A DNA stretch of 64,000 bases from Flavobacteriales bacterium (GTDB lineage Bacteria; Bacteroidota; Bacteroidia; Palsa-965), in the NCBI GenBank assembly GCA_040377305.1, contig JBEIPA010000002.1, positions 32,001 through 96,000 on the forward strand, written 5' to 3'. Every line of letters begins with the position of its first letter. Position 1 is the first letter of the stretch. The position numbers were made by a program, and so were the translations under genes. Shown one piece after another: positions 1,605 to 21,631 of the stretch. The notes beneath the pieces are model-generated. The model was not told where the DNA came from, ran no database searches, and was given only the letters and a program-made list of their open reading frames with translations.

Positions 1605-2942
1605 ATGACATCTCCGCTTAATTCGATTTCTCCGGTAGACGGCCGCTATTCCAAGCAAACCGAAAGTCTCCAACAGTATTTTTCAGAAAGTGCGCTGATA
1701 AAATATCGTCTGCTCATTGAAGCCGAATATTTTATTGCATTGAGTTCGGTTGTGCCGCAACTGAAAGATGTTGCATCGAGCAAACACGATGAAATCCGCG
1801 ACAAGGTGTATCGCAATTTTACCGAAGCGAATGCACTCGAAGTGAAAGAGACAGAGAAGACCACCAATCACGATGTGAAAGCGGTTGAGTACTTCGTGAA
1901 AGCGCGTCTGGCTGAAATCGGATTGGAGAAGCATCTTGAGTTCGTTCACTTCGGATTGACTTCGCAAGACATCAACAACACAGCAACACCACTGTTGATT
2001 AAGGACGCACACGAAAAAGTGTTGCTTCCTGCGATCAACGGAATTCTCGATACACTTTCAAAACTGGCGAACGACTGGAAGGACATTCCTATGCTCGCAC
2101 ACACGCACGGGCAACCGGCCTCTCCTACCCGTCTCGGAAAAGAGATTGAAGTGTTTGTTTCGCGTTTGAAAGAACAACTGCGTTTGCTTTCCATGGTTCC
2201 TTTTAGCGGGAAGTTTGGTGGAGCAACCGGTAACTTCAATGCACACCATGTTGCGTATCCGAATCACGACTGGAAAAAATTCGGTGATGAATTTGTGAAG
2301 TCTCTTGGACTGGTTCGTTCACATCCAACAACACAGATTGAACATTACGATAATCTCGCTGCGTACTTCGACGGTCTGAAACGTATCAACACAATTCTTC
2401 TTGACTTGTGTCGCGATATGTGGACATACATTTCCATGAACTACTTCCGTCAGAAAACAAAAGCGGGAGAAATCGGTTCATCGGCCATGCCACACAAAGT
2501 GAATCCGATTGATTTCGAAAACGCGGAAGGCAATCTCGGACTGGCGAATGCAATTTTCGAACACCTCAGTGCAAAACTTCCGATCTCCCGTTTGCAGCGC
2601 GATCTGACTGACTCAACAGTACTTCGCAACGTTGGTGTTCCGATTGCACACACATTGATCTCTTTGAACTCAGTTGCAAAAGGTTTGAGCAAACTTCTTC
2701 TGAATGAAGATGCGCTGAAAGCCGATCTCGAAGCAAACTGGGCAGTTGTTGCTGAAGCAATTCAGACCATTCTTCGTCGCGAAGGATATCCGAAGCCGTA
2801 TGAAGCGCTGAAAGATCTGACGCGTGGGAATAATTCTATCACGAAAGAATCGATTGCGACTTTCATTGAGGGATTGAATGTATCTGCAGAAGTCAAAGCA
2901 GAACTGAAGAAAATTTCACCTTCAAGTTTTACGGGGATTTAA
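1605..2942 (+). CDS. purB: Adenylosuccinate lyase
   Basis: ISPVDGRY, TNHDVKAVEY, HFGLTSQD, GSSAMPHKVNPIDFEN fumarate-lyase signature, SRLQRDLTDS. Confidence 0.97.
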   Translation: MTSPLNSISPVDGRYSKQTESLQQYFSESALIKYRLLIEAEYFIALSSVVPQLKDVASSKHDEIRDKVYRNFTEANALEVKETEKTTNHDVKAVEYFVKARLAEIGLEKHLEFVHFGLTSQDINNTATPLLIKDAHEKVLLPAINGILDTLSKLANDWKDIPMLAHTHGQPASPTRLGKEIEVFVSRLKEQLRLLSMVPFSGKFGGATGNFNAHHVAYPNHDWKKFGDEFVKSLGLVRSHPTTQIEHYDNLAAYFDGLKRINTILLDLCRDMWTYISMNYFRQKTKAGEIGSSAMPHKVNPIDFENAEGNLGLANAIFEHLSAKLPISRLQRDLTDSTVLRNVGVPIAHTLISLNSVAKGLSKLLLNEDALKADLEANWAVVAEAIQTILRREGYPKPYEALKDLTRGNNSITKESIATFIEGLNVSAEVKAELKKISPSSFTGI

Positions 2943-2963
2943 TTACCTCATTAATGTAACGGC

Positions 2964-5864
2964 ATGTCTACCCCCGCATCCGTACTGAATAGAACCGGAT
3001 GTCGTTGGTTGCAACGATTGCTGTTCCTATTAATTACTTTGAGTTGCGTTCATGCGCACGCCCAAACCCAACCTTCCTATTTCTTCCTCGGTGCAAAAGA
3101 ATTCGACGGCGTTCAGATTTACGATATTATTCAGGATAATGATCTGAACTATTGGATTGCTTCCGACAACGGACTTTACAAATACGATAGTTATTCGTTC
3201 GCGAAAGTGGAATGCGAAGGTGCACAGTCGCTTGCTGTGTTTGGTTTTGTAAAAAGTCTCACCGGTGAAATTTATTGTTACAATCTGAATAACCAGATTC
3301 TGCAGATCAAGCGCGACAAGTGTGCGGTGTTCTATAGTCTCAAACCCGAAGAACGTGCGTCGGACACTTATCTTTCCATTACTCCTGAAAATGAATTGCT
3401 GGTTTTTACCCGAACAATTCTACTCTTCACCAACGCTGGAACTCCGGTGAACATACCCAAACCCCGCTTATCCTACTATGGCTTTCCGTTTCAGACCTCA
3501 TCGGGTAAAACGATCAGTCACCTGGCCGATTCTGATTCGCTATTGATTTATGAAAACCGGCAAATACGTTATGTGAAAATGAATACAGGGCCTGACCAGA
3601 TTGACGGCGTCCTGAAATTTTTCACATTGAACAATAAGACGTTTGCAATTTCCACATCAGACAAAAACATCTACGCGTTTGATGAGCGTGATTACTCTGC
3701 TGTGATGGCACCATCAACAGACCTCGATAAGACCAAAGAGCCATTCCGGATATACAATGTGAATAGCACAGCCTGGGTTGCAGGTATAATTTCAGGAGTT
3801 CGCGTATTGTCTGATCAGGGACAACTTGAACTGTCTGACATGTACTATTCGCAGTATCTCATATCGGATGTATTCCAGGATGCGGAAGGGAATCTGTTGC
3901 TCAGCACATTCAATCATGGAATTCTGGTGGTGCCCGATATTAACGTTCCGGATGTTTTGAATATTGCCGGTGGTCACTCCATCATGAGTATACAGAGCGA
4001 TACTAAAATCGGAATGCTGATGGGGACGCTCACCGGAAAACTACTTGCCTACAAAGATGGAGTGTACACCACGCTGTCCGATTCCGGTGTAAGACCACTG
4101 CAATCGATTTTCAGTTGGCCCCAATTTCCATTCGTGATCTTTGACGATGGAGGAATAAAAGCGATGAACAAAGAAACCGGCACAATAACCCGTGTAGGAA
4201 TAGGTTCACTGAAGGATGCTTTGTGCATCAATGACTCCACCGTATATCTGGCGCTGAATATCGGACTGGCACACGTTACGTGGAACGGAGGAAATTCTTT
4301 CCATGCAGCTATCGTCCCTGACGTCCGGTTAAGATGCTATGCACTGGCGTACGCTCCCTCTGAAAATCTAATCTACGTTTCCACGTCAGATGGAGTGAAG
4401 ATGTTTGAACCGGGCGGTACCGTAGTGCCCTTGTTGCAAAACGGTTCTGCAGTATTTGCAAATGATATTACCTACGCAGATGGAGTAACTTATCTTGCCG
4501 GCAAGAACGGAATTCTGAAATGCGCTAACGGAAAAATTATCGGAACAATTTTGCCGATGATTCAGGATAAACCCGTTGAAATTCTGAAGTTCGAAGTACA
4601 GAATTCAATCATCAGCGCGATTACCGCCACTGGGTTTGCGCGATTCGACACCGAAGGTCATCTACTGATGCAACTGAACACGAAGCAAGGATTCTCCACG
4701 AATCGTATTTACAAATTCGATATTTCCGGCGATGAAATCTGGATCTGTCATTCACAGGGAGTGCAGAAACTAAGTGCTGAAATACTAAGCATTCCGGTAA
4801 CAAAACCGCTGATGCGCATTAGCGCTCTGAACGTAAATGATCAATCGGGTTCATTACTGAACGCCGGTGTATTTACCAGCGAAGAAAGAAAGTTCCGTTT
4901 CACCTTGTCTTCACCTACATTGCGTAATAAGGAAAACATCCGTTATCACTACCAACTGTCGGGATATGACGAAGCCTGGTTTATTTCCAACTACACCGAC
5001 AACCAGATTGTCTACAACGCATTGGCGCCAGGCGATTATGTTTTTACGGTTAAAGCAGAGAACTCCGGTGTGTTCAGTGATCCTGTTTCTTATTCGTTCA
5101 CAATTTCGGCCCCATTCTATTCCCGCTGGTGGTTCAGTGTGCTCATTGGTGTACTGTTGTTGCTGATCATCACTTTTGTTTACAGGTACAGACTTCAGCT
5201 TCAGGAGAAAAAAGCGAAGCTCGAAAACGAATTGCATGCATCCCGACTCACGGCGATTCAGTCGCAAATGAATCCGCACTTTATTTTTAACTCGCTGAAT
5301 TCTATCCAGGATCTTGTATTGAAAGGCGATGTGGACAATTCGTATACGTTCATTACCAAATTCTCCAATCTGGTTCGACGTACGCTTCACTATTCCGACA
5401 AAGACTTCGTTGAATTCAGTCAGGAAATAAAACTACTGGAGTTGTACCTCGCGCTTGAGAAATTGCGCTTTCGTGATGACTTCGAGTTCATTCTCGATAC
5501 GGAGGGAATTGATGACATCATGATTCCCCCAATGCTCATTCAGCCTTTCATCGAAAATTCCTTGCTGCACGGATTATTACACAAGGAAGGAAAGAAGAGG
5601 ATTACAATTACTTTTCGCCTGCTCGATAATCTCATTTGCACGGTGGAAGATAATGGTGTGGGTCGGGAGAAAGCGAAAGAAATCAAAAGCCGTCAACGTG
5701 CAGAACATGAGTCTTTCGCGGGTCAGGCAATTAAAAAGCGCTTTTCAATATTGAGCCGTCTGTTTCAGAGTGAATTGGGTTATACGTATGAAGACATGTA
5801 CGACGGAAAGCAAGCAATTGGCACCCGAGTGAAACTTACAATTCCGGTCAAACGAAACTTCTAG
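2964..5864 (+). CDS. LytS/YehU-type sensor histidine kinase with periplasmic beta-propeller and Y_Y_Y domain
   Basis: Signal-like N-terminus, propeller repeats, YHYQLSGYD...YNALAPGDYVFTV, one TM helix, LTAIQSQMNPHFIFNSLNSI H-box, IQPFIENSLLHG, VEDNGVG. Confidence 0.92.
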   Translation: MSTPASVLNRTGCRWLQRLLFLLITLSCVHAHAQTQPSYFFLGAKEFDGVQIYDIIQDNDLNYWIASDNGLYKYDSYSFAKVECEGAQSLAVFGFVKSLTGEIYCYNLNNQILQIKRDKCAVFYSLKPEERASDTYLSITPENELLVFTRTILLFTNAGTPVNIPKPRLSYYGFPFQTSSGKTISHLADSDSLLIYENRQIRYVKMNTGPDQIDGVLKFFTLNNKTFAISTSDKNIYAFDERDYSAVMAPSTDLDKTKEPFRIYNVNSTAWVAGIISGVRVLSDQGQLELSDMYYSQYLISDVFQDAEGNLLLSTFNHGILVVPDINVPDVLNIAGGHSIMSIQSDTKIGMLMGTLTGKLLAYKDGVYTTLSDSGVRPLQSIFSWPQFPFVIFDDGGIKAMNKETGTITRVGIGSLKDALCINDSTVYLALNIGLAHVTWNGGNSFHAAIVPDVRLRCYALAYAPSENLIYVSTSDGVKMFEPGGTVVPLLQNGSAVFANDITYADGVTYLAGKNGILKCANGKIIGTILPMIQDKPVEILKFEVQNSIISAITATGFARFDTEGHLLMQLNTKQGFSTNRIYKFDISGDEIWICHSQGVQKLSAEILSIPVTKPLMRISALNVNDQSGSLLNAGVFTSEERKFRFTLSSPTLRNKENIRYHYQLSGYDEAWFISNYTDNQIVYNALAPGDYVFTVKAENSGVFSDPVSYSFTISAPFYSRWWFSVLIGVLLLLIITFVYRYRLQLQEKKAKLENELHASRLTAIQSQMNPHFIFNSLNSIQDLVLKGDVDNSYTFITKFSNLVRRTLHYSDKDFVEFSQEIKLLELYLALEKLRFRDDFEFILDTEGIDDIMIPPMLIQPFIENSLLHGLLHKEGKKRITITFRLLDNLICTVEDNGVGREKAKEIKSRQRAEHESFAGQAIKKRFSILSRLFQSELGYTYEDMYDGKQAIGTRVKLTIPVKRNF

Positions 5865-6975: not shown

Positions 6976-7680
6976 TTACGGACGGGTTCCTAAGGCAACC
7001 GCTCCTGATCCCATGCCGCCAAATGTTGCAGCACCAACAGCAGCACCCACCGGTCCGCCTGCTACAGCTCCAGCTATTCCGCCTGCGATTCCAAATCCGA
7101 TATCAGCGCAAACGATTGCCACAACGCGTAAACACCTCTTTCTGGCTGAGATCGGTCCTGGAGGAGTTACAGGTTCCTTTATCTCCCAGTACGCGGCACT
7201 GTGGCGTGCAATAGATCCTGCTCCAGAAAGAATAACAAATTCGGTTTCACTTAGTTTTCCGATTTTATTCTGCCAACTCACTAAAGCCTGTTTTATTTCC
7301 TTCACCGATAAACGGCCCTTTTGAATTAAACGCAGTTGTTTAAAAAGCTCAGCCAGCTTTTGATTCGCTTTTTCTGATAAAGCCGGATTTTTCTTCCATG
7401 TAAATGAGACGTTTTTTGGGTCGTAGTTTGCCTCCTTCGCCTCCTGGACTATTGCTTCATACTTTTTACGGGGAATTTTTCCGAAAGCGTTTTCGGGCAA
7501 AGACAGAAAGTACTTCTCACCAAGTGCGACTATCTTTTTGACACTCATTTTTGGGGATCTGCCGGGAAGCTTCTGAACAATGAAGTTTATCACTTCGTTG
7601 TGATAGTAACCAACCAATTCAGTTTTGCCGAAATCATATTCAGCTGCAAGGTTTGCAATTTCTAGTTGTTCTGGGTTCAT
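6976..7680 (-). CDS. Hypothetical protein with Gly/Ala-rich hydrophobic, bacteriocin-like C-terminal tail
   Basis: 234-aa ORF; GYYHN near N-terminus, SIARHSAAYW, then VCADIGFGIAGGIAGAVAGGPVGAAVGAATFGGMGSGAVALG. Confidence 0.7.
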   Translation of the reverse strand: MNPEQLEIANLAAEYDFGKTELVGYYHNEVINFIVQKLPGRSPKMSVKKIVALGEKYFLSLPENAFGKIPRKKYEAIVQEAKEANYDPKNVSFTWKKNPALSEKANQKLAELFKQLRLIQKGRLSVKEIKQALVSWQNKIGKLSETEFVILSGAGSIARHSAAYWEIKEPVTPPGPISARKRCLRVVAIVCADIGFGIAGGIAGAVAGGPVGAAVGAATFGGMGSGAVALGTRP

Positions 7681-7866
7681 CTTTTTGTTTTTTTGTCAAG
7701 ATTACCAATTTTATTGAATAATTAATTTATAATTCATTAACAGTCCATTTTTATTCATGAATGGACATTATAATCCTTTCAAATGATTTGAGTTTATTTA
7801 AAAAGTGTAGTTCGTCCGTTGGAACCGACGCCCTCGCGAAGAATCCAAGGTGCGCTTCCTTCCTGT

Positions 7867-7935
7867 CCGTTCCTGAAGCTGTTGGGCTGTTCGTGAGTTT
7901 CTGAATATTCCTCCGTTCGATGTGCTGTATACTTG
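7867..7935 (+). promoter_or_regulatory. Putative LytTR-box promoter
   Basis: CCGTTCCTGAA (7867) and CTGTTCGTGAG (7887), 20-bp period; TATACTTG at 7928. Confidence 0.65.
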
Positions 7936-7973
7936 ACCAGAATTTCAAAAACAACACCCTTAAACTTTAGTCC

Positions 7974-8888
7974 ATGAAAAAAATCATGCTTGCCGCTCTC
8001 TTTAGTGTTTCATTGAATGTGATGAACGCCCAAATCGATATGATCACATCACTGAAAGCTATGGATGGTGTTGTGTACACTGAGTACTATGCTGTGACTA
8101 TCGCTGAGCCTGGAAAAAACACGATCAGCGGGAAACGCTACGTTTCGACGGTTAGCCCGGTGAAGAATCGCTTTGGGCATATCGTCGGCTTCGATGCCCT
8201 GAGCAAGGAGAATCCAGCTGAAAAGGATATTCTTTACAACTACATGTACAATATCTTCGACCACTATACACATCCATCCTACTCCACCGGTTCTGCAAGT
8301 ACAGCACAGGTAATTATCAACGGATGCATTTTTGAACTGGAATATTTCGAAAGCACCACCCAGTTTGGAATTGATAAGATATGGATTCCTTCTGTTCCGA
8401 AAGACAAGGCAGCTGATCCCGTTTTCAAAGGATCCAAAATGGCTGATATGAAATCGATTGATCTCATGAAGCTTGTCAAAGACTATTTCGTGGAAATGAA
8501 AAAGATTCAGGATGCTAATCCTTACAATGCAACCATGCAGGAGCAGGCGAACACGATGAAGTTCATTGTTGATTCAACACAACTGACTTACGACAATGCC
8601 AATGCTGCTTACTGGAATTCTCCGGAAGGACAGGCTAAACTGAATCAATTGCGCAAGCCAAAAGTTACGTTGGTGAATGACACGCAAAGCGATGTACTCA
8701 TGTGTTATGGACAAGGTGTTTCAACCGTCCTCAAGCCGGGAGAGAAAAAAGAATTCAGCTGCGATAACGGTAAAATATTTAAAGGAAAACATCGTGAGAA
8801 TTCAGAACAGTTGGACAGTACCGGAGAAGTGCTGCTCAATCTTGATGGAAATAATTGCGGACGAGAAATAAAAGCTTCGACCCTTTAG
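7974..8888 (+). CDS. Secreted hypothetical protein
   Basis: 304-aa ORF with Sec signal MKKIMLAALFSVSLNVMNA-Q; small Cys-containing beta domain at C-terminus; no family recognised. Confidence 0.8.
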   Translation: MKKIMLAALFSVSLNVMNAQIDMITSLKAMDGVVYTEYYAVTIAEPGKNTISGKRYVSTVSPVKNRFGHIVGFDALSKENPAEKDILYNYMYNIFDHYTHPSYSTGSASTAQVIINGCIFELEYFESTTQFGIDKIWIPSVPKDKAADPVFKGSKMADMKSIDLMKLVKDYFVEMKKIQDANPYNATMQEQANTMKFIVDSTQLTYDNANAAYWNSPEGQAKLNQLRKPKVTLVNDTQSDVLMCYGQGVSTVLKPGEKKEFSCDNGKIFKGKHRENSEQLDSTGEVLLNLDGNNCGREIKASTL

Positions 8889-8902
8889 TTCAAAATAATT
8901 AC

Positions 8903-8944
8903 AAAAAAGACAGCACTTGCTTAGACGCAGGTGCTGTCTTTTTT
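8903..8944 (+). terminator. Rho-independent terminator
   Basis: AAAAAAGACAGCACTTGC / GCAGGTGCTGTCTTTTTT. Confidence 0.85.
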
Positions 8945-8956
8945 GTGCTGTATTGT

Positions 8957-9024
8957 CCGTTGCTGAAGCCGTTTGGCTGTTGGTGAACTCTATTTTTTCC
9001 CGAGTTGGGGTCGGTGTACGTTTG
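8957..9024 (+). promoter_or_regulatory. Putative LytTR-box promoter
   Basis: CCGTTGCTGAA (8957) and CTGTTGGTGAA (8977); perfect TACGTTTG at 9017. Confidence 0.7.
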
Positions 9025-9069
9025 TGGTAATTGAAATTGCCACTAATTCCCTTACACAAATTACGCAGT

Positions 9070-12000
9070 ATGAAAACCAGTCACTTATTTCTCGCCTTCT
9101 TCCTAATCTTCGGAATTCAATCAGGTTTCGCGCAAGCACCAAATTATGTTTGGGCAAAACGAATCGGTGGAACTGACATCGAAACAGGAAGGTCCATCGC
9201 CGTCGATGCAGCTGGAAATTCATATACCACTGGACAGTTTCGCGGGACCGTTGACTTTGACCCGGGCCCGGGAACCGCACTGGTTACAACTCTTGGTGTT
9301 GAGGATATTTTCATCACCAAACTGGACAATGCCGGAAACTATGTGTGGAACAGAAGAATTGGTAGTGCCACCTCGGAATACAGCTACTCAATCGCACTCG
9401 ATCCATCCGGAAATATTTACATAACTGGGCAATTCGCCGGCTCGGTAGATTTCGATCCAGGCGCAGGAGTTGCCACTTTAACTTCATTGGGCTCCTGGGA
9501 CGCATATGTTCTCAAACTTGACGTTTCCGGAAATTTCGTTTGGGCAAGACGATTTGGATCAACCTTAGCTGACATTGGACGTACCGTTACTGCAGATGCT
9601 GCTGGAAATGTTTACACAACCGGAACATACACAGGCACTGTAGATTTTGATCCGGGTGCGGGAACGAGCAATCTCGTAGCAGTTGGTGGTCTAGATGTTT
9701 TTATTTCCAAACTAGACGCAGCAGGGAATTTCGTTTGGGCACAATCAGTTGGTGGTACCGGAGCTGAAGAAGGTCGTGGCCTCATCGTTGATGGCACAGG
9801 CAATGTGTTCCTTTGTGGATACTTCGCTGCCACTGCGGATTTCGATCCAGGTGCGGGGACATTCAATTTAACTTCAGCAGGGTCTAACGACATATATCTG
9901 GTGAAATTAAATTCGGCCGGTACTTTTGTATGGGCTGTGAGCATGGGTGGCACACTTAGTGATGCGGCCGTGTCCATCGCACTCGATGCAGTAGGTAATA
10001 TTCAGATGGGCGGCAGTTTTAATGGCACTGCAGACTTTGATCCGGGTGTTGGAGTCAACAACTTGACTTCCGCCGGTGCTGCCGATATGTTTGTTTTAAA
10101 ATTAAACGCCACCGGATCTTTAATCTGGGTGACGCGAACAGGTGGAACAGGTGATGATAATGCCAATCAGATTGTTCTCGACCCTTTAGACAATGTATAT
10201 ATCGGTGGAGGCTTCAATGCTACGGTAGATTTTGACCCGGGTGCAGGAACTGTCAATCTGGTGTCATCCGGTGGCTTTGATATTTCAATTGCCAAACTGG
10301 ATGCATCCGGAAATTACCTATGGGCAGTTCGTATGGGCGGGATATCAAACGAGGCGGCATATTCAATTGCTTATCATTCCTCCGGCACAATTTACTCCAC
10401 AGGTGCTTTCGATGACGTGGTCGACTTCAATCCTGGTGCAGGCGTAGCAAACTTAACTTCAGCTGGTGCTCAAGAAGTGTTTGTTCAAAAGCTTTGTCAA
10501 CTTGCACCACAACCCGGCGTGATAAGCGGACCTTCACCTATCTGTTCCGGTACAACGAATACGTATAGCATTACACCTGTACCTACTGCGACTACTTATA
10601 CTTGGAGCACACCTGCTGGATGGACAGGTACCTCAACAACAAATAGTATTTCAACTACCGCAAGTTTAACGAGTGGAAATGTATCTGTGGTTGCAAACAA
10701 TGCGTGCGGTGCGTCAGTAGTACGTACGTTAAGCGTCACAGTAACTCCTACTCCTACATTTCCTACAGTAATAACCGGCAACACAAATGTCTGTCCCGGC
10801 TCAACAAACATATATACTATCGGATTCGTTAATGGTGCAACACTTTACACATGGACTTATCCTGTGGGCTGGACAGGTCCTGCAACTTCGACGATTCCAA
10901 GTGTGTCTACAACTGCTGGTCCTAACAGCGGTACAATTTCGGTGACTGCAAGTAACTCGTGCGGGTCTGCTGGTCCGCGAACACTCGTGGTAACGGTTAC
11001 TGCAGGACCAACATCTACCGTTTCTTCGCAAACCAATATTTCCTGTAACGGCGGTACAAACGGTGCTGCAACAGTGCTTGCTTCCGGAGGAACATCACCA
11101 TATACTTATGTATGGGCTCCATCAGGCGGAACTGCGGCCACGGCTACAGGTTTAGCTGCGAACACATACACGTGTACAATCACAGATGCAGCCGGCTGCA
11201 CGCGCGCACAAACGGTTACCATCACGCAACCGTCTGCGCTCGCTTCATCCATTTCCTCGCAAACAAATGTTTCCTGTAACGGAGGCGCGAACGGAGCCGC
11301 AACGGTTTCAGTGAGCGGAGGATCTCCTTTGTACACGTATTCATGGGCACCGAGTGGTGGAACAGCTGCAACTACAACAGGAAGATCAGCAGGAACATAT
11401 ACGTGTACAATTACAGATGCAAACGGGTGTACGCGCACACAAACAGTTTCATTAACACAACCCACCGCAATCACTTCTTCAGTTTCATCACAAACAGGTG
11501 CTTCATGCAATGGCGGATCTAATGGAACTGCTACAGTGCTCGCAGGTGGTGGAATCTCTCCTTACACCTATTCCTGGGCGCCAAGCGGCGGAACTGCAGC
11601 AACAGCAACAGGACTTAGCGCAATTACTTACACCTGTACGATTACAGATGCGAACTCATGTACACGTACACAAACAGTTACGATCACACAGCCTACTGCA
11701 ATCACTTCATCCGTTTCTGCACAAACAAATGTGTTGTGTAACGGAGCAAGCACAGGAGCTGCAACAGTTGCTGTTTCAGGCGGAACACCAGGATACACTT
11801 ACTCATGGGCTCCTTCTGGCGGAACTGCTGCAACAACTACAGCACGACCAGCTGGAATCTATACTTGTACAATAACCGATGCAAGCGGCTGCACACGAAC
11901 GCAAACTGTAAACATCACACAACCAACTGCAATCACTTCTTCGATTTCTGCTTCGACCAACGTGACTTGCAATGGAGGAAACAACGGAACTGCAACTGTT

Positions 12001-14175
12001 CTTGCTGGTGGCGGAACTCCAGGTTATACTTACCTCTGGGCTCCGAGCGGAGGAACAACTGCAACTGCAACCGGATTGTCTGCACTGGTGACTTACACGT
12101 GCACAATTACAGATGCAAACGGATGTACTCGCACACAAACAGTAACGTTAACACAACCTGCGGGAATGTCGTCGTCTGTCGCATCACAAGTAAATGTGTC
12201 GTGCAACGGTGGCGCTAATGGTTCTGCAACAATTACGGTAAGCGGTGGAACTGGTCCTTACACGTATGCTTGGTTACCATCTGGCGGAACAACTGCTTCC
12301 ATCACCGGAAGAACTGCAGGTGTTTATACTTGTACAATCACAGATGCTGGTGGATGTACACGCACACAAACAGTTAACATCGCACAACCTTCCGCTATCA
12401 CTTCTGCGGTTTCATCGCAAACCAACGTTTCGTGTAACGGCGGAAACAACGGCGCAGCTACAATTTCTGTTTCAGGTGGAACTCCGGGATACACTTACTT
12501 GTGGGCTCCTTCCGGCGGAACAACAGCATCAATTACCGGAAGAACATTCGGAACGTATACCTGCACAATCACGGATGCAAACGGATGCACAAGCACACAA
12601 ACCGTAAACATCACACAACCTACTGTGCTTACCGCAGCGATTGCTTCTCAGACTGATGTTTCCTGTAATGGAGGAAGTAATGGTGACATCACTGTTACTG
12701 CATCAGGTGGCACTTCAGGTTACACGTACTTATGGTCACCAAGCGGAGGAACAGCTGCAACTGCAACAGGTTTAACTGCGACGACATACTCCTGTCTGAT
12801 TACTGACGCAAACGGATGTTCAACGACACAAACGGCAACGCTCACACAACCGTCTGCAATCAACGCCACCGTTTCTGCACAAACCGATGTAACGTGCAAC
12901 GGAGGAAGCGATGGTTCTGCAACAATGAACGCAACCGGAGGAGTTGGAGGATTCACATTTGCATGGACTCCAACAGGTGGTAATACTGCAACGGCAACTG
13001 GATTGTCGGCACTTATAACATACACCTGCACAATCACGGATGCAAACGGATGTTCAATTGCACAAACTGTTACGATCACAGAACCGAACGCAATTGCCTC
13101 TTCTGTTTCTTCGCAGACAGATCTCACGTGCAACGGTTCTAACGACGGAGCTGCAACGATTACAGCATCAGGTGGAACAGGCTTACTCAGCTATGACTGG
13201 ACTCCGGGAAATCCAACAGGCGATGGAACTGTTAGCGTTACTGGCTTGTCGGCACAAACATGGACGTGCACAATCACAGACGCAAACATGTGTATGCATA
13301 CGCAGGTAGTTACTATCACAGAACCAACCGCTGTAACAACATCTGTGACTTCACAAACTGATCCAACCTGTAATGCAGGCAACGATGGAACTGCTGACAT
13401 TGCTGCTACAGGTGGCGTAGGAAACTTCACATATCTCTGGTCACCTTCGGGTGGAACTGCCGCAACTGCAACAGGACTTGCTGCAGGATCATATACTTGT
13501 CTTGTTACAGATGCAAACGGATGCGCAGCTTCAGAAATTATCACACTTAGTGAGCCTGCCGCAATCACGTCTTCGCAAACTGTAACACTTTGTGCGGGAC
13601 AAACGCTTACAGTTGGTGCATCGACTTACACGGTAACCGGAATTTACAATGAAACACTTACTGCGCTGAACGGTTGCGATAGCACAGTAACAACTGACCT
13701 CACTATTAACGCTTCAATTGATGTGTCCACAACTGTAGTCGGAAACACTGCAACTGCAAACCAGAATGGTGCAACTTACCAGTGGATCGATTGTCTCAAC
13801 AGCAATGCACCACTTGCAGGAGAAACGAATCAGTCATTGACACCGGCAGTGAGTGGAGACTATGCAGTAATTGTAACAGTTGGTTCATGTAGCGACACCA
13901 GTGCGTGCACGAATGTCATCACCGGAATAGATGCGCTTGAAGTAAATAACTTTAGCGTGTATCCGAATCCAACAAACGGAGTCGTTACAATTCAGCTGAA
14001 TACATTCTCACCGAATGCACAGATCGAAGTATTCAACGCACTTGGTCAGATGGTAATCACCGCGAAGCCTACGAACACAGTTACAACGGTTGAACTTCCT
14101 GAAGACAACGGAATCTATCTCGTGCGAGTAACGATCAATGGAATGAGCACAACGCAGAAAGTGATTAAAGAGTAA
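9070..14175 (+). CDS. Large T9SS-secreted adhesin-like protein: 7 SBBP (DFDPG) propeller repeats, 2 PKD-like domains, 11 SprB repeats, T9SS CTD
   Basis: Start moved to ATG 9070 (MKTSHL.. signal peptide); seven DF[DN]PG repeats; eleven CNG...[IV]TDA.[GSM]C repeats; VYPNPTNG...GIYLVRV CTD. Confidence 0.9.
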   Translation: MKTSHLFLAFFLIFGIQSGFAQAPNYVWAKRIGGTDIETGRSIAVDAAGNSYTTGQFRGTVDFDPGPGTALVTTLGVEDIFITKLDNAGNYVWNRRIGSATSEYSYSIALDPSGNIYITGQFAGSVDFDPGAGVATLTSLGSWDAYVLKLDVSGNFVWARRFGSTLADIGRTVTADAAGNVYTTGTYTGTVDFDPGAGTSNLVAVGGLDVFISKLDAAGNFVWAQSVGGTGAEEGRGLIVDGTGNVFLCGYFAATADFDPGAGTFNLTSAGSNDIYLVKLNSAGTFVWAVSMGGTLSDAAVSIALDAVGNIQMGGSFNGTADFDPGVGVNNLTSAGAADMFVLKLNATGSLIWVTRTGGTGDDNANQIVLDPLDNVYIGGGFNATVDFDPGAGTVNLVSSGGFDISIAKLDASGNYLWAVRMGGISNEAAYSIAYHSSGTIYSTGAFDDVVDFNPGAGVANLTSAGAQEVFVQKLCQLAPQPGVISGPSPICSGTTNTYSITPVPTATTYTWSTPAGWTGTSTTNSISTTASLTSGNVSVVANNACGASVVRTLSVTVTPTPTFPTVITGNTNVCPGSTNIYTIGFVNGATLYTWTYPVGWTGPATSTIPSVSTTAGPNSGTISVTASNSCGSAGPRTLVVTVTAGPTSTVSSQTNISCNGGTNGAATVLASGGTSPYTYVWAPSGGTAATATGLAANTYTCTITDAAGCTRAQTVTITQPSALASSISSQTNVSCNGGANGAATVSVSGGSPLYTYSWAPSGGTAATTTGRSAGTYTCTITDANGCTRTQTVSLTQPTAITSSVSSQTGASCNGGSNGTATVLAGGGISPYTYSWAPSGGTAATATGLSAITYTCTITDANSCTRTQTVTITQPTAITSSVSAQTNVLCNGASTGAATVAVSGGTPGYTYSWAPSGGTAATTTARPAGIYTCTITDASGCTRTQTVNITQPTAITSSISASTNVTCNGGNNGTATVLAGGGTPGYTYLWAPSGGTTATATGLSALVTYTCTITDANGCTRTQTVTLTQPAGMSSSVASQVNVSCNGGANGSATITVSGGTGPYTYAWLPSGGTTASITGRTAGVYTCTITDAGGCTRTQTVNIAQPSAITSAVSSQTNVSCNGGNNGAATISVSGGTPGYTYLWAPSGGTTASITGRTFGTYTCTITDANGCTSTQTVNITQPTVLTAAIASQTDVSCNGGSNGDITVTASGGTSGYTYLWSPSGGTAATATGLTATTYSCLITDANGCSTTQTATLTQPSAINATVSAQTDVTCNGGSDGSATMNATGGVGGFTFAWTPTGGNTATATGLSALITYTCTITDANGCSIAQTVTITEPNAIASSVSSQTDLTCNGSNDGAATITASGGTGLLSYDWTPGNPTGDGTVSVTGLSAQTWTCTITDANMCMHTQVVTITEPTAVTTSVTSQTDPTCNAGNDGTADIAATGGVGNFTYLWSPSGGTAATATGLAAGSYTCLVTDANGCAASEIITLSEPAAITSSQTVTLCAGQTLTVGASTYTVTGIYNETLTALNGCDSTVTTDLTINASIDVSTTVVGNTATANQNGATYQWIDCLNSNAPLAGETNQSLTPAVSGDYAVIVTVGSCSDTSACTNVITGIDALEVNNFSVYPNPTNGVVTIQLNTFSPNAQIEVFNALGQMVITAKPTNTVTTVELPEDNGIYLVRVTINGMSTTQKVIKE

Positions 14176-14204: not shown

Positions 14205-14235
14205 AAGGGAAGATCGAAAGGTCTTCCCTTTTTTT
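14205..14235 (+). terminator. Rho-independent terminator (GAAA tetraloop)
   Basis: AAGGGAAGATC-GAAA-GGTCTTCCCTT plus T tract. Confidence 0.85.
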
Positions 14236-14328: not shown

Positions 14329-16701
14329 ATGAAAAAGATTCTACTATTCACCACAATGTTGTTTAGCTCTGCCATTGCGAACGCGCAAACATTCGGCTGG
14401 GCAGGAAGTCTAGGTAGCGGAAGCAACGAAGAAGGACGTGGTGTTGCCGTTGACGCCAGCGGAAATGTTTACTCAGTTGGTTATTTTACTGGTTCAGGCG
14501 ACTTTGATCCGGGTCCGGGTGTTACGACTCTAACGTCTGGTGGTTCTAACGACGTTTATGTTTCAAAACTGGATGCGTCAGGGAATTTTGTGTGGGCAAT
14601 ACGAATGGGAGGCACCGGGCCTCAAACCGGAGTTGCCATTGCTTTGGATAATTCAGGCAACGTTTACATCACCGGAAACTTCAATAACACAATTGACATG
14701 GATCCGGGTGCAGGTGTTGTAAATATTACTTCACTGGGAGCACAGGATATTTTCATTGGTAAATATGATCCGTCGGGAAACCATGTTTGGTCGAAGCGCT
14801 TTGGAAGTGCATTTCATGAGGCGGCGGCCAATATCACTGTTGACGCTTCGGGCAATGTCCTGACCTGCGGTTTGTTTACCGGAACCACAGATTTTGACCC
14901 GGGCGCTGGTACAGTCAATCTTACTGCAAGTACAGTAAGTGATGGGTACATTTCCAAATTGGATGCGAATGGTAACTATGTTTGGGCAAAACAAATTGGA
15001 TTGAGCGGATCGAATACTCCTACTTCAATAAAGTGTGATGGCTCTGGAAATATTTACCTCACCGGTGGATATGAGAGCACCACCGACTTTGATCCGGGCG
15101 CAGGATCGTATCCAATAACTTCTGCCGGATCAGTGGATATATTTTTTCTGAAGCTGGATACCAATGGCGACTTCAGCTGGGCTGGAAGCATGGGCGGAAC
15201 TTCGTATGACCTCGGACGTTCCCTTGCGATTGATGCAGGCGGCAATGTCGTAATGACCGGCGAATTTCAAGGAACTGCAGATCTAGATCCCACCGTTGGA
15301 GTCTACAATCTAACTTCCTTCGCGATCAAGGACATTTTCATTGCAAAATTTAATCCTGCTACGGCTACCTTCATATGGTCGGTAATGGTTGGCGAGACCT
15401 ATAATGACATTGGCTATAGCATCGCTACAGATGCCAGCAATAATATTTATCTGACTGGTGATTTTACCGGTACAGTTGATTTTGATCCAGGTGCAGGAAG
15501 CGTTTTACTTACATCTGACGGCAACCAAAAAGATTGTTTTATCCTCAAGCTCGATGCCTCCGGAAATTATATGTGGGCTGGCAAATTCGGTTCTTCATTC
15601 TTAGCTGATGCTGCCTATTCCATTTATGTAGACGCTTCCACAAATATTTACACCACAGGATCTTATCAGGACGTGGTTGATTTTGACCCGGGAGTTGGTA
15701 CAAACATTCTCACTTCGGGCGGTCAGGTAGACGTATACGTTCTGAAGTTAGAACAATGCGTTGCACCAGTAGCACCTATGAATACAACACCTGCAGCATC
15801 ATTAACTGTGTGCGGACCCGGTTCCACTACACTCACAGCAAGTGGCTCCGGCACCTTGGGTTGGTATTCTGCTTCTACAGGAGGAACCTATCTGGGTGGA
15901 GGCACAAGTTTCACAACTCCTGTTCTAAGCAATGACACGGTTTACTATGTACAAGACAGCACGTGTGTTGACGGACCACGCACAGCAGTTACTGTTACGT
16001 TCAATCCGGCAATGAGCACCTCTGTTTCTTCCCAAACGAATGTTACGTGCTTTGGAGGAATTGATGGCAACGCAGGAGTAAGCGTGAGTGGCGGAACACC
16101 AAACTACTCGTATCTATGGACACCGTCCGGTGGAACGCAACCTGTAGAATTTAACATGAGTGCAGGAACATACACCTGCACAGTTACCGATGCTGCAGGT
16201 TGTACCACTGCGCAAATTGTTACGATCACAGAGCCAGGTGCAATTGACGTTACGACAACACTGAACGGCAACATGCTTTCTGCAAATCAGAATGGCGCAA
16301 CGTATCAGTGGATCGATTGTCTCAACGGTAACGCACCAGTTGCAGGAGAAACCAATCAGACCTTTACTCCACAAGCGAACGGAGACTATGCAGTAATTGT
16401 AACTGTTGGTCCGTGCAGCGATACCAGTGCTTGCACAAATGTGATCACAGGAATCGACGCGCATGATAACGTTGCATTCAACCTGTATCCGAATCCGACA
16501 AACGGAATCGTTACCATTCAGCTGAACACATTCTCACCGAATGCACAGATCGAAGTATTCAATGCACTTGGTCAGATGGTAATCACTGCGAAACCAACAA
16601 ACACAGTTACTACAGTTGAACTTCCTAAAGAAAATGGAATCTATCTCGTGCGTATAACATGTGATGGAGTGAGCAGCACAACGCGTGTGGTGAAAGAATA
16701 G
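14329..16701 (+). CDS. T9SS-secreted SBBP-repeat propeller protein with Ig-like domain, one SprB repeat and T9SS CTD (paralog of 9070-14175)
   Basis: Signal peptide; seven DFDPG-like repeats; WYSASTGG...YYVQ Ig-like module; LYPNPTNG CTD nearly identical to the upstream paralog. Confidence 0.9.
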   Translation: MKKILLFTTMLFSSAIANAQTFGWAGSLGSGSNEEGRGVAVDASGNVYSVGYFTGSGDFDPGPGVTTLTSGGSNDVYVSKLDASGNFVWAIRMGGTGPQTGVAIALDNSGNVYITGNFNNTIDMDPGAGVVNITSLGAQDIFIGKYDPSGNHVWSKRFGSAFHEAAANITVDASGNVLTCGLFTGTTDFDPGAGTVNLTASTVSDGYISKLDANGNYVWAKQIGLSGSNTPTSIKCDGSGNIYLTGGYESTTDFDPGAGSYPITSAGSVDIFFLKLDTNGDFSWAGSMGGTSYDLGRSLAIDAGGNVVMTGEFQGTADLDPTVGVYNLTSFAIKDIFIAKFNPATATFIWSVMVGETYNDIGYSIATDASNNIYLTGDFTGTVDFDPGAGSVLLTSDGNQKDCFILKLDASGNYMWAGKFGSSFLADAAYSIYVDASTNIYTTGSYQDVVDFDPGVGTNILTSGGQVDVYVLKLEQCVAPVAPMNTTPAASLTVCGPGSTTLTASGSGTLGWYSASTGGTYLGGGTSFTTPVLSNDTVYYVQDSTCVDGPRTAVTVTFNPAMSTSVSSQTNVTCFGGIDGNAGVSVSGGTPNYSYLWTPSGGTQPVEFNMSAGTYTCTVTDAAGCTTAQIVTITEPGAIDVTTTLNGNMLSANQNGATYQWIDCLNGNAPVAGETNQTFTPQANGDYAVIVTVGPCSDTSACTNVITGIDAHDNVAFNLYPNPTNGIVTIQLNTFSPNAQIEVFNALGQMVITAKPTNTVTTVELPKENGIYLVRITCDGVSSTTRVVKE

Positions 16702-16726: not shown

Positions 16727-16759
16727 AAAGGAAAGATCGAAAGGTCTTTCCTTTTTTTG
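16727..16759 (+). terminator. Rho-independent terminator; contains the left copy of a 27-bp direct repeat (16733-16759)
   Basis: AAAGGAAAGATC-GAAA-GGTCTTTCCTTTTTTT. Confidence 0.85.
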
Positions 16760-16783: not shown

Positions 16784-17434
16784 TTAACGTTTCTTCTTCT
16801 TCAACGGCTTAAAATACGGTCGTGATTTTACCGTTACAGGGGCACTCGCAATGTAATTTGTCCCGGTACTTCCTGTCACAATTGATAGCTCTGCATATGT
16901 TGTGGTACCAGACGACACGGAATTACCATATCCATAAACCACAGAATAAGATTCTGATCTCTTTGTAGGAGGATATTTTTCAGTCGCTAAACTTTCCGTT
17001 CGCAACTTCGCGTAAGCTGCCTTAAAATCTTCAAAAAAATCTTCAAGTACAAACTGAGTCTTTCCATCAATCACATCTAAGTGCTTAGGAGAAGAATCCG
17101 GATGACAACAACGTGAAGTTAGTAAGACGGAATCGCCCGTTCGGTACTGATGAAGTAATGGTCCCCGCAGTTGCTCAAATATCCATTGTGCATTCTTCTG
17201 ATACCACTCATTTTCAAACAATGTTTTAAGCGAACGTTCAAATCTATTTTTTGATTCTCCGTACTTGTTATGCGGTGAGGAATCTGAGAATGAACCTAAA
17301 TACTCAATTCCTGTACAAATTGCCATGAATGCTTGAAAGTCAATTTTTGAATCAATTAATGATTGAACCAACGATACAATCACCTCGCCGTGTCCGATAG
17401 CATTAGTCTCGTACTTAATCACCAATTTGTTCAT
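16784..17434 (-). CDS. Putative HEPN-like (RxxxxH) protein
   Basis: ATG at 17434 (TTG 17452 alternative); helical AFMAICTGIEYLG...RFERSLKTLF...IFEQLRGPLLHQY with R-x4-H; low-complexity Ser/Thr/Gly tail ending KKKKR. Confidence 0.55.
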   Translation of the reverse strand: MNKLVIKYETNAIGHGEVIVSLVQSLIDSKIDFQAFMAICTGIEYLGSFSDSSPHNKYGESKNRFERSLKTLFENEWYQKNAQWIFEQLRGPLLHQYRTGDSVLLTSRCCHPDSSPKHLDVIDGKTQFVLEDFFEDFKAAYAKLRTESLATEKYPPTKRSESYSVVYGYGNSVSSGTTTYAELSIVTGSTGTNYIASAPVTVKSRPYFKPLKKKKR

Positions 17435-17485
17435 GAATTCGAATATTCTCAAGAAAATAAATATAGTTGCGGTCTATTAATGAGG

Positions 17486-18229
17486 TTACACCAGCTTATT
17501 GTCGAGCGCATATTTTTTCCCGAGAGGAGTGATCCAGATTGCCTCCGAAACTCCAGTAAAACTAATCAGCTTTTCTGATTTCGCTTGATCAAGCGCCACA
17601 TCTATCATCGTTCGAGACATCCCTGGAATCATAGAACGAACCTCACTGTACACAACAAACTCTCGCTGACCATGTTCAAAAATTTGAATCATCACTCGCA
17701 TAACCTCCATCAATGTATCGTGCTGCGGCGTTTTACTTCCTACTGCAACTGGTGAGAATGGCTTGTAACCTATTTCTGGCTTTTTAAACAATGGGGCATC
17801 ATGTATTTTCCTCAACAGTTCATCTGACGCATATTCATAATCATCATCCTTTGAATAATTTATGTACAGTTTAGATTTCAAAAATGTCGGAACTTCAGTT
17901 GTACCACTTTGACGTATAACAGGAATAATTTTACTCTCACTAATACTCTTCATTAGACTTGAAGTAATTATCATCTTTTCATACCCAACGCCACCACTAC
18001 CAGCATTCGCTTTCTCAACATACTTACTCGTACATATCATCAATATATAGTCTGCCTTGGCAAGATTGCTTTCCATAAAATGAGGGACGTCATCACCTGC
18101 GGTTAAATCCCACTGATCCAAAGTTGCATCAACTCCGTTCTGTCTTAAGCGGGTTGCCAATTCTAGAACCCACTTTTTATGATCAAGTGAATCGTGCGAA
18201 TAAGAAACAAATACTTTGGGGATTTTCAT
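17486..18229 (-). CDS. TIR/SEFIR domain protein with C-terminal winged-helix-like domain
   Basis: ATG at 18229; PKVFVSYSHDS..HKKWV..LATRLR.NGVD..LDQWDL..G; GGVGYE with conserved Glu; KIIPVIR; tail ITPLGKKY resembles a wHTH wing. Confidence 0.85.
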   Translation of the reverse strand: MKIPKVFVSYSHDSLDHKKWVLELATRLRQNGVDATLDQWDLTAGDDVPHFMESNLAKADYILMICTSKYVEKANAGSGGVGYEKMIITSSLMKSISESKIIPVIRQSGTTEVPTFLKSKLYINYSKDDDYEYASDELLRKIHDAPLFKKPEIGYKPFSPVAVGSKTPQHDTLMEVMRVMIQIFEHGQREFVVYSEVRSMIPGMSRTMIDVALDQAKSEKLISFTGVSEAIWITPLGKKYALDNKLV

Positions 18230-18281: not shown

Positions 18282-18641
18282 TTATTGCGGCAAAGATGTC
18301 TTCCATGTATTTATCTCAAACAGAACTGCACAATCACCTACCTCGTTCCACATAGTTTTTTGCTTACCCCAGAAGTAAAAGTGATTAGTCGTTCCGTCTG
18401 CATTCTTGCTCTCAGTATTAGTTCCCGTGCCGGAATATATAATAACATGATCGCCAGACTTAACCTTCTTTGGTTTGAACCAAAATGCATCTTTCTGAGA
18501 ATTGGAAATCGTCGAAGCGCTAGAATAAACTGTGTCAAAAATTATGTAGTAGACAAGATCAGCGTCCTCAAGAACCCTTAAGTGCAGTCGCTCCTTGCTA
18601 GCTACCCCACGATCAGCAATTTGTATGATATCTAATTTCAT
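18282..18641 (-). CDS. Small all-beta protein, lamin-tail-domain (LTD)-like
   Basis: 119 aa; ERLHL...FWF....VKSGDHVIIYSGTG......FYFWG....MWNEVGDCAVL resembles the LTD pattern; no signal peptide. Confidence 0.6.
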   Translation of the reverse strand: MKLDIIQIADRGVASKERLHLRVLEDADLVYYIIFDTVYSSASTISNSQKDAFWFKPKKVKSGDHVIIYSGTGTNTESKNADGTTNHFYFWGKQKTMWNEVGDCAVLFEINTWKTSLPQ

Positions 18642-19102
18642 TTTTTGACCGCTCTCCCAATTGAGGCACTAATTGTTAATACTAATCCAATTATGAGACA
18701 TAAGATACCATGAATACTATTGGCGTCCCAAAAATAAGGTGCTAGCCCGAATATTGCTCCCCCCAACCCAACACCCACGCCGAACAGAATTTCCATTGCC
18801 CTGTCAGCTTTCAACTTTTCACCCAAAACTGACGCCTTTTTATCGGCTTCATGAAAACTAGTCACATAGCTTTTTAAGTTTTCCTTTTCATTTTCAGCTT
18901 CCTCGAGCATCTCTAACAACATTTTCTGAGTGCCCGTTTGAGAAAGTTCCTCGTCGGTAAGTTGTCTGCGAACATTACTGAGTGCCTGTCTTCTACCAGA
19001 AGCAGGAGCACTAATTTGTTCAGCTGATGCAAGAGTTTCCTTGCCTGAACTAAGATCTGGTGAAATAGGAGGCTCTTCGGGATTAGTGTCGTTCTTGGAC
19101 AT
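18638..19102 (-). CDS. Coiled-coil protein with two C-terminal transmembrane helices
   Basis: 154 aa; charged helical middle, then ILFGVGVGLGGAIFGLA and GILCLIIGLVLTISASIG; ATGA overlap with the downstream gene. Confidence 0.75.
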   Translation of the reverse strand: MSKNDTNPEEPPISPDLSSGKETLASAEQISAPASGRRQALSNVRRQLTDEELSQTGTQKMLLEMLEEAENEKENLKSYVTSFHEADKKASVLGEKLKADRAMEILFGVGVGLGGAIFGLAPYFWDANSIHGILCLIIGLVLTISASIGRAVKK

Positions 19103-19289
19103 AGTTGACGATAATTCACACCTAAATGTAATAAAGGCATGGAACTATAAGTAAAGATAGAAATCTGACCTAAACAACCAATTCACTTACCGTCCACACT
19201 CAAAATCTTAACAGACCTTTCCTTCGAATTCTTTAACATTCTACTACTTGAATTCAGATAGCCAAGACAATTGTTCCTTTTGATGGAAT

Positions 19290-19493
19290 ATGTTCATCTC
19301 CGGCTTCTCCATCGTTCGCAATGCCATCAAATACGATTACCCGATCGAGGAAGCCATTCGTTCTATACTTCCGGTGTGCGATGAGCTTGTGATTGTTGCG
19401 CAGAAATCTTAAAGACAATGTGCGAAAGATTGTTCATTCCGCGGACCACGTAAAATGAGGAGCTAGTCTTGATTGAAGATGACTCATTGCGAG
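19290..19493 (+). pseudogene. Decayed duplicate of the 5' end of the glycosyltransferase gene at 20759
   Basis: 19290-19409 aligns base by base with 20759-20878 (MFISGFSIVRNAIKYDYPI.EAIRSILP.CDE), then an in-frame stop; remnant GATGACTCATTGCG (DDSLR) near 19478-19491. Confidence 0.85.
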
Positions 19494-19518: not shown

Positions 19519-19545
19519 AAGATCGAAAGGTCTTTCCTTTTTTTG
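19519..19545 (+). repeat. Right copy of the 27-bp direct repeat (terminator-derived)
   Basis: Identical to 16733-16759. Confidence 0.9.
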
Positions 19546-20758: not shown

Positions 20759-21631
20759 ATGTTCATCTCCGGCTTCTCCATTGTCCGCAATGCCATCAAA
20801 TACGATTATCCGATCGTGGAAGCCATTCGTTCTATACTTCCGCTGTGCGATGAATTCGTGATTGCTGTTGGAAAATCGGACGACGATACATTGAAGATGA
20901 TCAAGAAACTGGACGAGCCGAAAATCAGAATCATTGAAACAGTGTGGGACGATTCATTGCGCGAAGGAGGAAAAGTACTCGCCGATGAAACCAACAAAGC
21001 CTACGATGCAATTTCTGAGAAAGCAGATTGGTGCTTTTACATCCAGGGCGATGAAGTGATTCACGAGAAATTTCTGCCGGCGATTAAAGCAGGAATGCAG
21101 CAGTGGAAAGACGACAAGAATGTGGAAGGTTTACTTTTCGATTACACGCACTTCTACGGTTCGTACGATTACGTGGGTGATTCCCGAAAATGGTATCGCA
21201 AAGAAATTCGCATTGTGCGCAAGAACAAAACCATTCGATCCTACAAAGACGCGCAGGGGTTTCGTCACAATGATAATTCCAAGCTGAAAGTAAAAGCAAT
21301 CGATGCGAGTGTGTATCACTACGGCTGGGTAAAACCACCGGAAGCGCAACAAGCGAAACAACAATCGTTTCACAAAATGTGGCACGATGATCAATGGATG
21401 AAACAAAATGTTCCGGCTGTTGAGAAATTCGATTATTCGCAGATTGATTCACTGGCGAAATTCACAGGCACGCACCCGCTCGTCATGCATGATCGGATTC
21501 AGAGAATGAACTGGAAGTTTGCATTTGATCCGACGAGAAAGAAGTGGGGAATGAAGATGCGTCTGCTTATGTTCGTTGAGAAAACGACTGGAGTGCGCAT
21601 CGGTGAGTACAAAAACTACGAACTATTGTAA
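20759..21631 (+). CDS. Glycosyltransferase family 2-like protein
   Basis: ISGFSIVRNA, SDDDT, WCFYIQGDEV (DxD-like), VYHYGWVK. Confidence 0.85.
   Translation: MFISGFSIVRNAIKYDYPIVEAIRSILPLCDEFVIAVGKSDDDTLKMIKKLDEPKIRIIETVWDDSLREGGKVLADETNKAYDAISEKADWCFYIQGDEVIHEKFLPAIKAGMQQWKDDKNVEGLLFDYTHFYGSYDYVGDSRKWYRKEIRIVRKNKTIRSYKDAQGFRHNDNSKLKVKAIDASVYHYGWVKPPEAQQAKQQSFHKMWHDDQWMKQNVPAVEKFDYSQIDSLAKFTGTHPLVMHDRIQRMNWKFAFDPTRKKWGMKMRLLMFVEKTTGVRIGEYKNYELL

Follow-up and report, generated by a model that had tools for sequence, protein, structure and literature searches.

The window, a 64,000-nucleotide stretch of contig JBEIPA010000002.1 from a Flavobacteriales bacterium, carries on its minus strand two short overlapping genes: one for a 154-residue protein with a coiled coil and two predicted transmembrane helices (2TM; positions 18638-19102) and, directly downstream, one for a 119-residue stand-alone protein of predicted lamin tail domain (LTD) fold that lacks a signal peptide (18282-18641), for which we propose the putative roles of effector and of guard or sensor, respectively. 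Direct inspection of the sequence placed both open reading frames where an earlier reading made from the sequence alone (the sequence-only reading) had put them, on the minus strand and joined by an ATGA in which the stop codon of the 2TM gene overlaps the start codon of the LTD gene (18638-18641, minus strand; tcat on the plus strand), an overlap that suggests translational coupling of the two genes. A four-base stop/start overlap is present in 57 of 76 2TM-LTD pairs, and six more pairs overlap by one base; because both families are conserved and the four-base overlap recurs, the pair is not a chance arrangement of open reading frames. Neither protein has a significant match in Pfam, PADLOC, NCBIfam or PHROG, and searches of both proteins and their homolog sets against PADLOC 2.0.0 and NCBIfam 20.0 returned no convincing match, just stray weak ones to one or two members; both families are conserved and annotated elsewhere as 'hypothetical proteins'. 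Homologs occur in cultured Serratia, Pseudomonas, Paracoccus, Enterobacter and Vibrio. Assembled contigs from one public sequencing run cover the stretch that holds the pair, and one joins it to the flanking desaturase gene; the run may, however, derive from the source sample itself, in which case it is no independent confirmation. Promoters and terminators were no more numerous than expected by chance.

The pair stands at the head of an islet of four genes and 2.8 kb with a G+C content of 0.398, compared to 0.451 for the genome. The islet is edged by two identical 27-bp direct repeats on the plus strand, the left one (16733-16759) consisting of a terminator-like hairpin plus a T-run and the right one located at 19519-19545; a third copy, which differs at one position, forms the end of a paralogous gene near position 14210. 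The other two genes of the islet, which we place outside the module, encode a 247-residue SEFIR/TIR protein (17486-18229, minus strand; PADLOC bSEFIR, E 4e-79) and a 222-residue protein of no known family (16784-17452, minus strand). The bSEFIR match covers residues 1-177 of the 247-residue protein, which is shorter than the 412-position model and ends in an unrelated C-terminal part of about 70 residues. Since the SEFIR/TIR start codon lies on the same strand, 52 bases beyond the LTD stop codon, and unrelated TIR-type genes are found near two other pairs, the 2TM and LTD proteins might be viewed as accessory parts of the adjacent SEFIR/TIR system, but this proposal is largely refuted by a tblastn search in which neither the SEFIR nor the 222-residue protein had a match beside any other 2TM-LTD pair, and by downstream neighbours that vary among loci, and we regard it as scarcely credible. 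The same search supports the description of the pair as self-contained in the sequence-only reading: bSEFIR is a neighbour in the same islet, but a separate family that is not co-conserved with the pair. The 222-residue protein has two homologs (about 54%) in congeners, located elsewhere in the genome among restriction-modification-like and PtuA-like genes, one of them beside a PtuA-like ATPase, and it is for this reason a separate defence candidate.

The 27-mer follows secreted repeat-protein genes at a variable cargo site in the genus (seven loci), and the same site in several congeners holds other genes or nothing. Within the islet, 110 bp (positions 19289-19398) duplicate the start of the glycosyltransferase gene at 20759, its 5' end, with 92% identity. 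A similar glycosyltransferase fragment in genome G407 follows a different cargo gene, which we take to be RhuM-like. To the left of the islet lie genes for two large secreted repeat proteins (9031-14175 and 14329-16701), paralogs whose C-terminal regions are nearly identical and give rise to assembly joints. An empty site was considered as the source of the contig joints and rejected, as they are better explained by the end of the paralogous gene together with the duplicated glycosyltransferase start.

An AF2 model of the 119-residue protein, computed with 113 homologs, consists of eight strands and has a pLDDT of 96.9. Its best match by VIA is lamin B1 (Z 9.0, rmsd 2.7 over 93 residues; next match Z 5.3), and the top 14 rows listed by Foldseek are all lamins, with E-values of 0.0015-0.025 and none at E ≤ 0.001; a viral fold library gave no match at the latter threshold. 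Sequence identity to the lamins is 12-18%. The Pfam LTD model (PF00932) does not match the 119-residue protein itself, but weakly matches 22 of the 113 homologs at E ≤ 0.01 (best E 4e-7), and LTD is the nearest named cluster in the Atlas (0.84, a lead only). The predicted fold is therefore the one shared with the Ig-like domains of lamin A/C and lamin B1 (for example 7dtg and 1ifr), as the sequence-only reading had supposed from an all-beta sequence with a GD.V.IYSG.G...FWG....WN..GD.A.L motif, both of which we recovered; the alternative, a fold other than LTD or Ig-like, is not what the model predicts. A word-index search with the 119-residue query retrieved the query alone, whereas a full HMMER search recovered 795 LTD representatives at E ≤ 0.001, and among the best 150 of these the homologs are 86-224 residues long. 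Conserved positions comprise G12, E17, W54, F55, D64, G73, W91 and W113. The protein begins directly with a beta strand, without a hydrophobic leader, and a hydrophobic N-terminal 12-mer is present in 1 of 199 LTD homologs, in keeping with the absence of a signal peptide; since there is no leader and a strand stands at the very start, the sequence points to a cytoplasmic location. No longer, fused LTD form was present among 7,990 candidates, a count that is weak evidence given the search tool. A 199-residue database protein has a 2TM-like coiled-coil motif before an LTD, and seems to be a pair merged by a frameshift or a wrong gene call, not a genuine fusion. Bacterial LTDs have been described as fused to secreted DNases in the accessible part of the relevant report (PMC4486849); the sequence-only reading had them as usually fused to secreted nucleases or hydrolases. 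From these classical exported, hydrolase-fused LTDs the 119-residue protein differs in having neither signal peptide nor fusion partner, and from the lamins in being stand-alone and without a signal peptide.

The homolog search with the 154-residue protein returned 59 matches. In its model, residues 1-34 have pLDDT values below 50, consistent with an N-terminus that is variable across homologs and probably disordered, and are followed by short helices at 37-53, a long helix at 56-119 and a final helix at 129-153. A conserved helical motif includes R46, L48, L53 and G57-Q59-K60, a heptad pattern places hydrophobic residues at 10 of 14 a/d positions, and hydropathy peaks at about 1.6 near residue 106 and at 2.3 at residue 130. 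Hydropathy and the model together predict a C-terminal hairpin of two transmembrane helices, the first of which is glycine-rich and moderately hydrophobic only, separated by a loop of a few residues; the charged helical region and the two C-terminal membrane helices described earlier for this protein thus reappear in the prediction. The last eight residues carry a net positive charge in 71 of 77 homologs. Basic segments of membrane proteins face the cytoplasm according to the positive-inside rule, and from this basic tail we infer that both ends of the 2TM protein, as well as its coiled coil, lie on the cytoplasmic side of the membrane, together with the LTD. Fold searches with the 2TM model retrieved generic helical hairpins only (best E 1.6; best Z 8.7 over 59 residues), and PDB sequence searches gave nothing significant; with no telling structural neighbour for the model, a pore can be suggested by analogy alone.

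The two genes travel together. An LTD gene lies directly downstream of the 2TM gene in 26 of 28 loci selected on 2TM, the other two ending at a contig edge; these 28 comprise 21 genome loci, from several phyla and one archaeal bin, and seven loci on viral contigs, five of which are near-identical. Seven further loci were dropped, since they match 39-53 residues of the hydrophobic stretch only, inside ORFs of 800-850 residues, and fail both HMMs. To obtain loci not selected on the 2TM partner, we scanned metagenomes with an LTD motif, which provided 80 loci with flanks, of at least 120; 79 of the 80 are LTD genes, and six have too little upstream DNA. Among the matches listed, a 2TM gene lies upstream in 61 of the 73 assessable loci (59 partners intact or edge-cut, 2 broken, and 12 loci with none), a tally for which the 2TM profile was partly built from the same loci. 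In the window's phylum, four of 401 genomes had an LTD match and three a 2TM match, each 2TM beside its LTD, with a 2TM profile that included those partners. LTD proteins that are more alike tend to have 2TM partners that are more alike (Spearman 0.54 between pairwise identities; 0/999 permutations), as shared descent alone would also produce. A divergent branch of twelve loci has longer LTDs (about 134-149 residues) and longer coiled coils, with gene order kept. We conclude that the 2TM-LTD pair is a conserved cassette, the homologs being tightly linked rather than usually apart.

Linkage is asymmetric: all 26 assessable 2TM-selected loci have an LTD gene, frameshifted in one, whereas LTD genes often stand alone. 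Because 2TM is not seen without LTD while LTD survives alone, we favour a guard-type wiring in which the LTD restrains a 2TM membrane effector, a model to which we give slightly less than an even chance. Broken copies bear on it as well. At two loci the 2TM gene is interrupted by a nonsense codon next to an intact LTD, and another has a decayed 2TM partner; in contrast, the frameshifted LTD behind an intact 2TM gene would, if real, contradict a toxic 2TM protein, unless it stems from an assembly error. Two further LTDs are split, with little flanking DNA.

Twenty partnerless LTD sequences form one clade (FastTree SH-like support 95, from few columns), whose members come mostly from viral contigs, partly because that subfamily was the query there; the clade shows that LTD can persist alone, and further solo LTDs exist outside it. 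The clade has conserved residues of its own (D36, T38, S46, K48, R50, H51 and G102) and is more basic than the paired LTDs (median pI 8.8 versus 6.7), and F88, a candidate interface residue, is conserved in 84% of paired but 5% of solo sequences. Solo genes are located after Rz spanins, a tail-fibre invertase or filamentous-phage pIV, or beside repressor and integrase genes, and in one complete genome (G211) an LTD gene with no 2TM match lies between CBASS E1-E2/JAB genes and genes for an AriA-like ATPase. There, at 2362-5073 of the locus, the solo LTD stands 15 bases upstream of the gene for a 775-residue AriA/Old-like ATPase, which is possibly a second type of LTD partner. Since the solo clade is conserved, LTD must have a role without its partner, which the guard model itself leaves unexplained. 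The main rival to that model is one in which the LTD itself is antiviral and binds a protein or the DNA of the incoming phage, whereas 2TM is a membrane tether or regulator only; the partnerless, basic clade with its own conserved residues, the presence of its members in prophages and of one in the CBASS/AriA-like island, and the reversed arrangement shown by the phage pair Butters gp30/gp31, as far as the accessible text of the report goes (PMC12894663), are all in its favour. The paired LTDs, however, have a median net charge of 0, which is not suggestive of DNA binding, and their persistence beside 2TM genes with nonsense codons argues that the LTD is probably not a toxin in need of sequestering. 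We consider this rival unlikely, yet the strongest of the alternatives.

The cassette, which we regard as mobile, is rare, patchy and AT-rich. None of 26 congeners gave an LTD match (completeness is 90% or more for 18; the tally includes the unpublished genome G412), and 2TM matches were present in 2 of 400 genomes of the window's phylum and in 0 of 300 and 0 of 400 genomes of two other phyla, centres excluded in each case. G+C content is below that of the flanks in 44 of 46 pair loci. Three LTD queries had no match in annotated phages, and complete E. coli genomes gave no blastn match. Integrase, resolvase, transposase, phage, restriction-modification, TIR or nuclease genes lie within 6 kb of the pair at 12 of 21 genome loci, the other nine having housekeeping neighbours only. 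PADLOC matched 15 of 134 neighbouring proteins (11 of 49 loci) compared to 3 of 41 non-islet window genes that served as control, or 11 of 134 compared to 0 of 41 once generic helicase, peptidase and housekeeping methyltransferase matches had been removed by judgement; the scan covered 134 of 155 called ORFs at metagenome loci, and the enrichment of defence genes is modest, slight in the raw counts and clear with that removal only. One metagenome pair has a type VI retron (HTH, RT and a 97-residue small protein; 2865-5459 of the locus) directly upstream on the same strand.

In a complete P2-like provirus, whose proteins are annotated from Serratia, the pair occupies the interval from the replication protein A (gpA) gene to the portal gene, next to genes for a CBASS cyclase and a CBASS 2TM effector. 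Positions 7579-12361 of this locus comprise the CBASS 2TM effector and cyclase, a 216-residue gene, a 114-residue ORF and the 2TM-LTD pair. The 216-residue product, which has no PADLOC match at E ≤ 1e-12, presumably resembles AbiV. The gpA-portal (gpA-gpQ) locus of P2 is a defence hotspot, according to the part of the source available (10.1101/2021.01.21.427644). In other prophages the pair interrupts late-gene regions, where it separates terminase from portal or adjoins genes for tape-measure or lysis proteins, and it is often antisense to them.

Two more alternatives are to be judged against this distribution. The small coupled genes, a 2TM protein not found without LTD and the sporadic insertion beside housekeeping genes would suit a phage-independent toxin-antitoxin pair serving addiction or stress, with a membrane toxin and with solo LTDs as orphan antitoxins. 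However, the pair is nearly absent from plasmids (among 72,556 records, one weak LTD-like match and no 2TM match), neither model has an evident DNA-binding autoregulatory domain, and the pair occurs in a known phage-defence hotspot, so that we hold this explanation to be distinctly unlikely. Positions among the cargo of temperate phages and a hairpin protein of the inner membrane would likewise fit a prophage-borne function that spares the cell and either shuts out phage DNA (superinfection exclusion) or alters the inner membrane in another way, but with so short a loop between the helices, the conserved bulk predicted to be cytoplasmic and many chromosomal copies with no phage genes nearby, we rate this as rather improbable too. 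The genomic context points to anti-phage defence, and we consider a defence role in the broad sense probable.

Several characterised systems resemble the 2TM-LTD pair in part. The RexAB types (lambda RexAB, P. putida RexABpp and Butters gp30/gp31) are, in the portion of the report available, prophage-borne two-gene systems with a cytoplasmic and a membrane protein (PMC12894663), and thus share with our pair gene number, the cytoplasmic and membrane partners and prophage carriage. RexA is there described as a DNA-binding clamp of about 37 kDa and RexBpp as a four-helix membrane bundle (PMC12894663), whereas in our pair the soluble partner is predicted to be a 119-residue LTD beta-sandwich rather than a RexA fold, and the membrane partner is a long coiled coil with two predicted transmembrane helices and no PADLOC match. 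The guarded 2TM effectors of Panoptes (OptE/2TM-beta) and Hailong (HalA) are also encoded in two-gene operons with a membrane protein, and the accessible text reports that the partner keeps the membrane effector off until phage interferes (PMC13434031); in these systems, however, the partner is a nucleotide-synthesising enzyme that exerts restraint through its product, while here it is an Ig-like domain that does not look like an enzyme, and the transmembrane protein carries no fused ligand-binding domain. Our literature searches, which most subscription papers lay outside, found no paper on the pair, and the word 'lamin' is absent from the main text of PMC13552941, PMC13092281, PMC12366544, PMC13434031 and PMC13069673, whose supplements could list families unnamed.

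Taken together, the pair is a real and conserved, though uncharacterised, module of two genes that most likely acts against phage. The sequence-only reading had proposed a sensor-effector or toxin-antitoxin module, of which the LTD fold, the linkage and the self-containment have stood, while the solo LTD clade was not foreseen. Abortive-infection effectors are usually built as a small membrane hairpin joined to a coiled coil in the cytoplasm. Examples of such effectors appear in the available part of PMC13434031. In the guard model, 2TM and LTD would be co-translated 1:1 from the coupled genes as a stoichiometric complex, in which the cytoplasmic LTD would bind the coiled coil and restrain the membrane-anchored 2TM protein. 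A phage product might then displace or alter the LTD, and the released 2TM protein would oligomerise and damage the inner membrane, possibly through a pore, leading to abortive infection.

Lamins are built as a coiled coil followed by an LTD, and the likeness of this architecture to the 2TM-LTD pair is an analogy only. A wider proposal, which we find doubtful, joins the paired and solo genes: cytoplasmic LTDs would be unrecognised phage receptors gating a membrane effector, and the derived solo clade of prophages either a stand-alone restriction factor or a decoy silencing the paired genes. The LTD and a membrane-anchored coiled-coil rod would then correspond to the two parts of a lamin, in the same order, on two genes.

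If the pair does defend against phage, it would be a compact system of 273 residues in all, made of two uncatalogued families, and would extend the lamin-tail fold, which in bacteria is chiefly familiar as an attachment to exported enzymes, to immunity in the cytoplasm. The paired and solo LTD clades offer a natural contrast that makes the question of sensor versus antitoxin directly testable.
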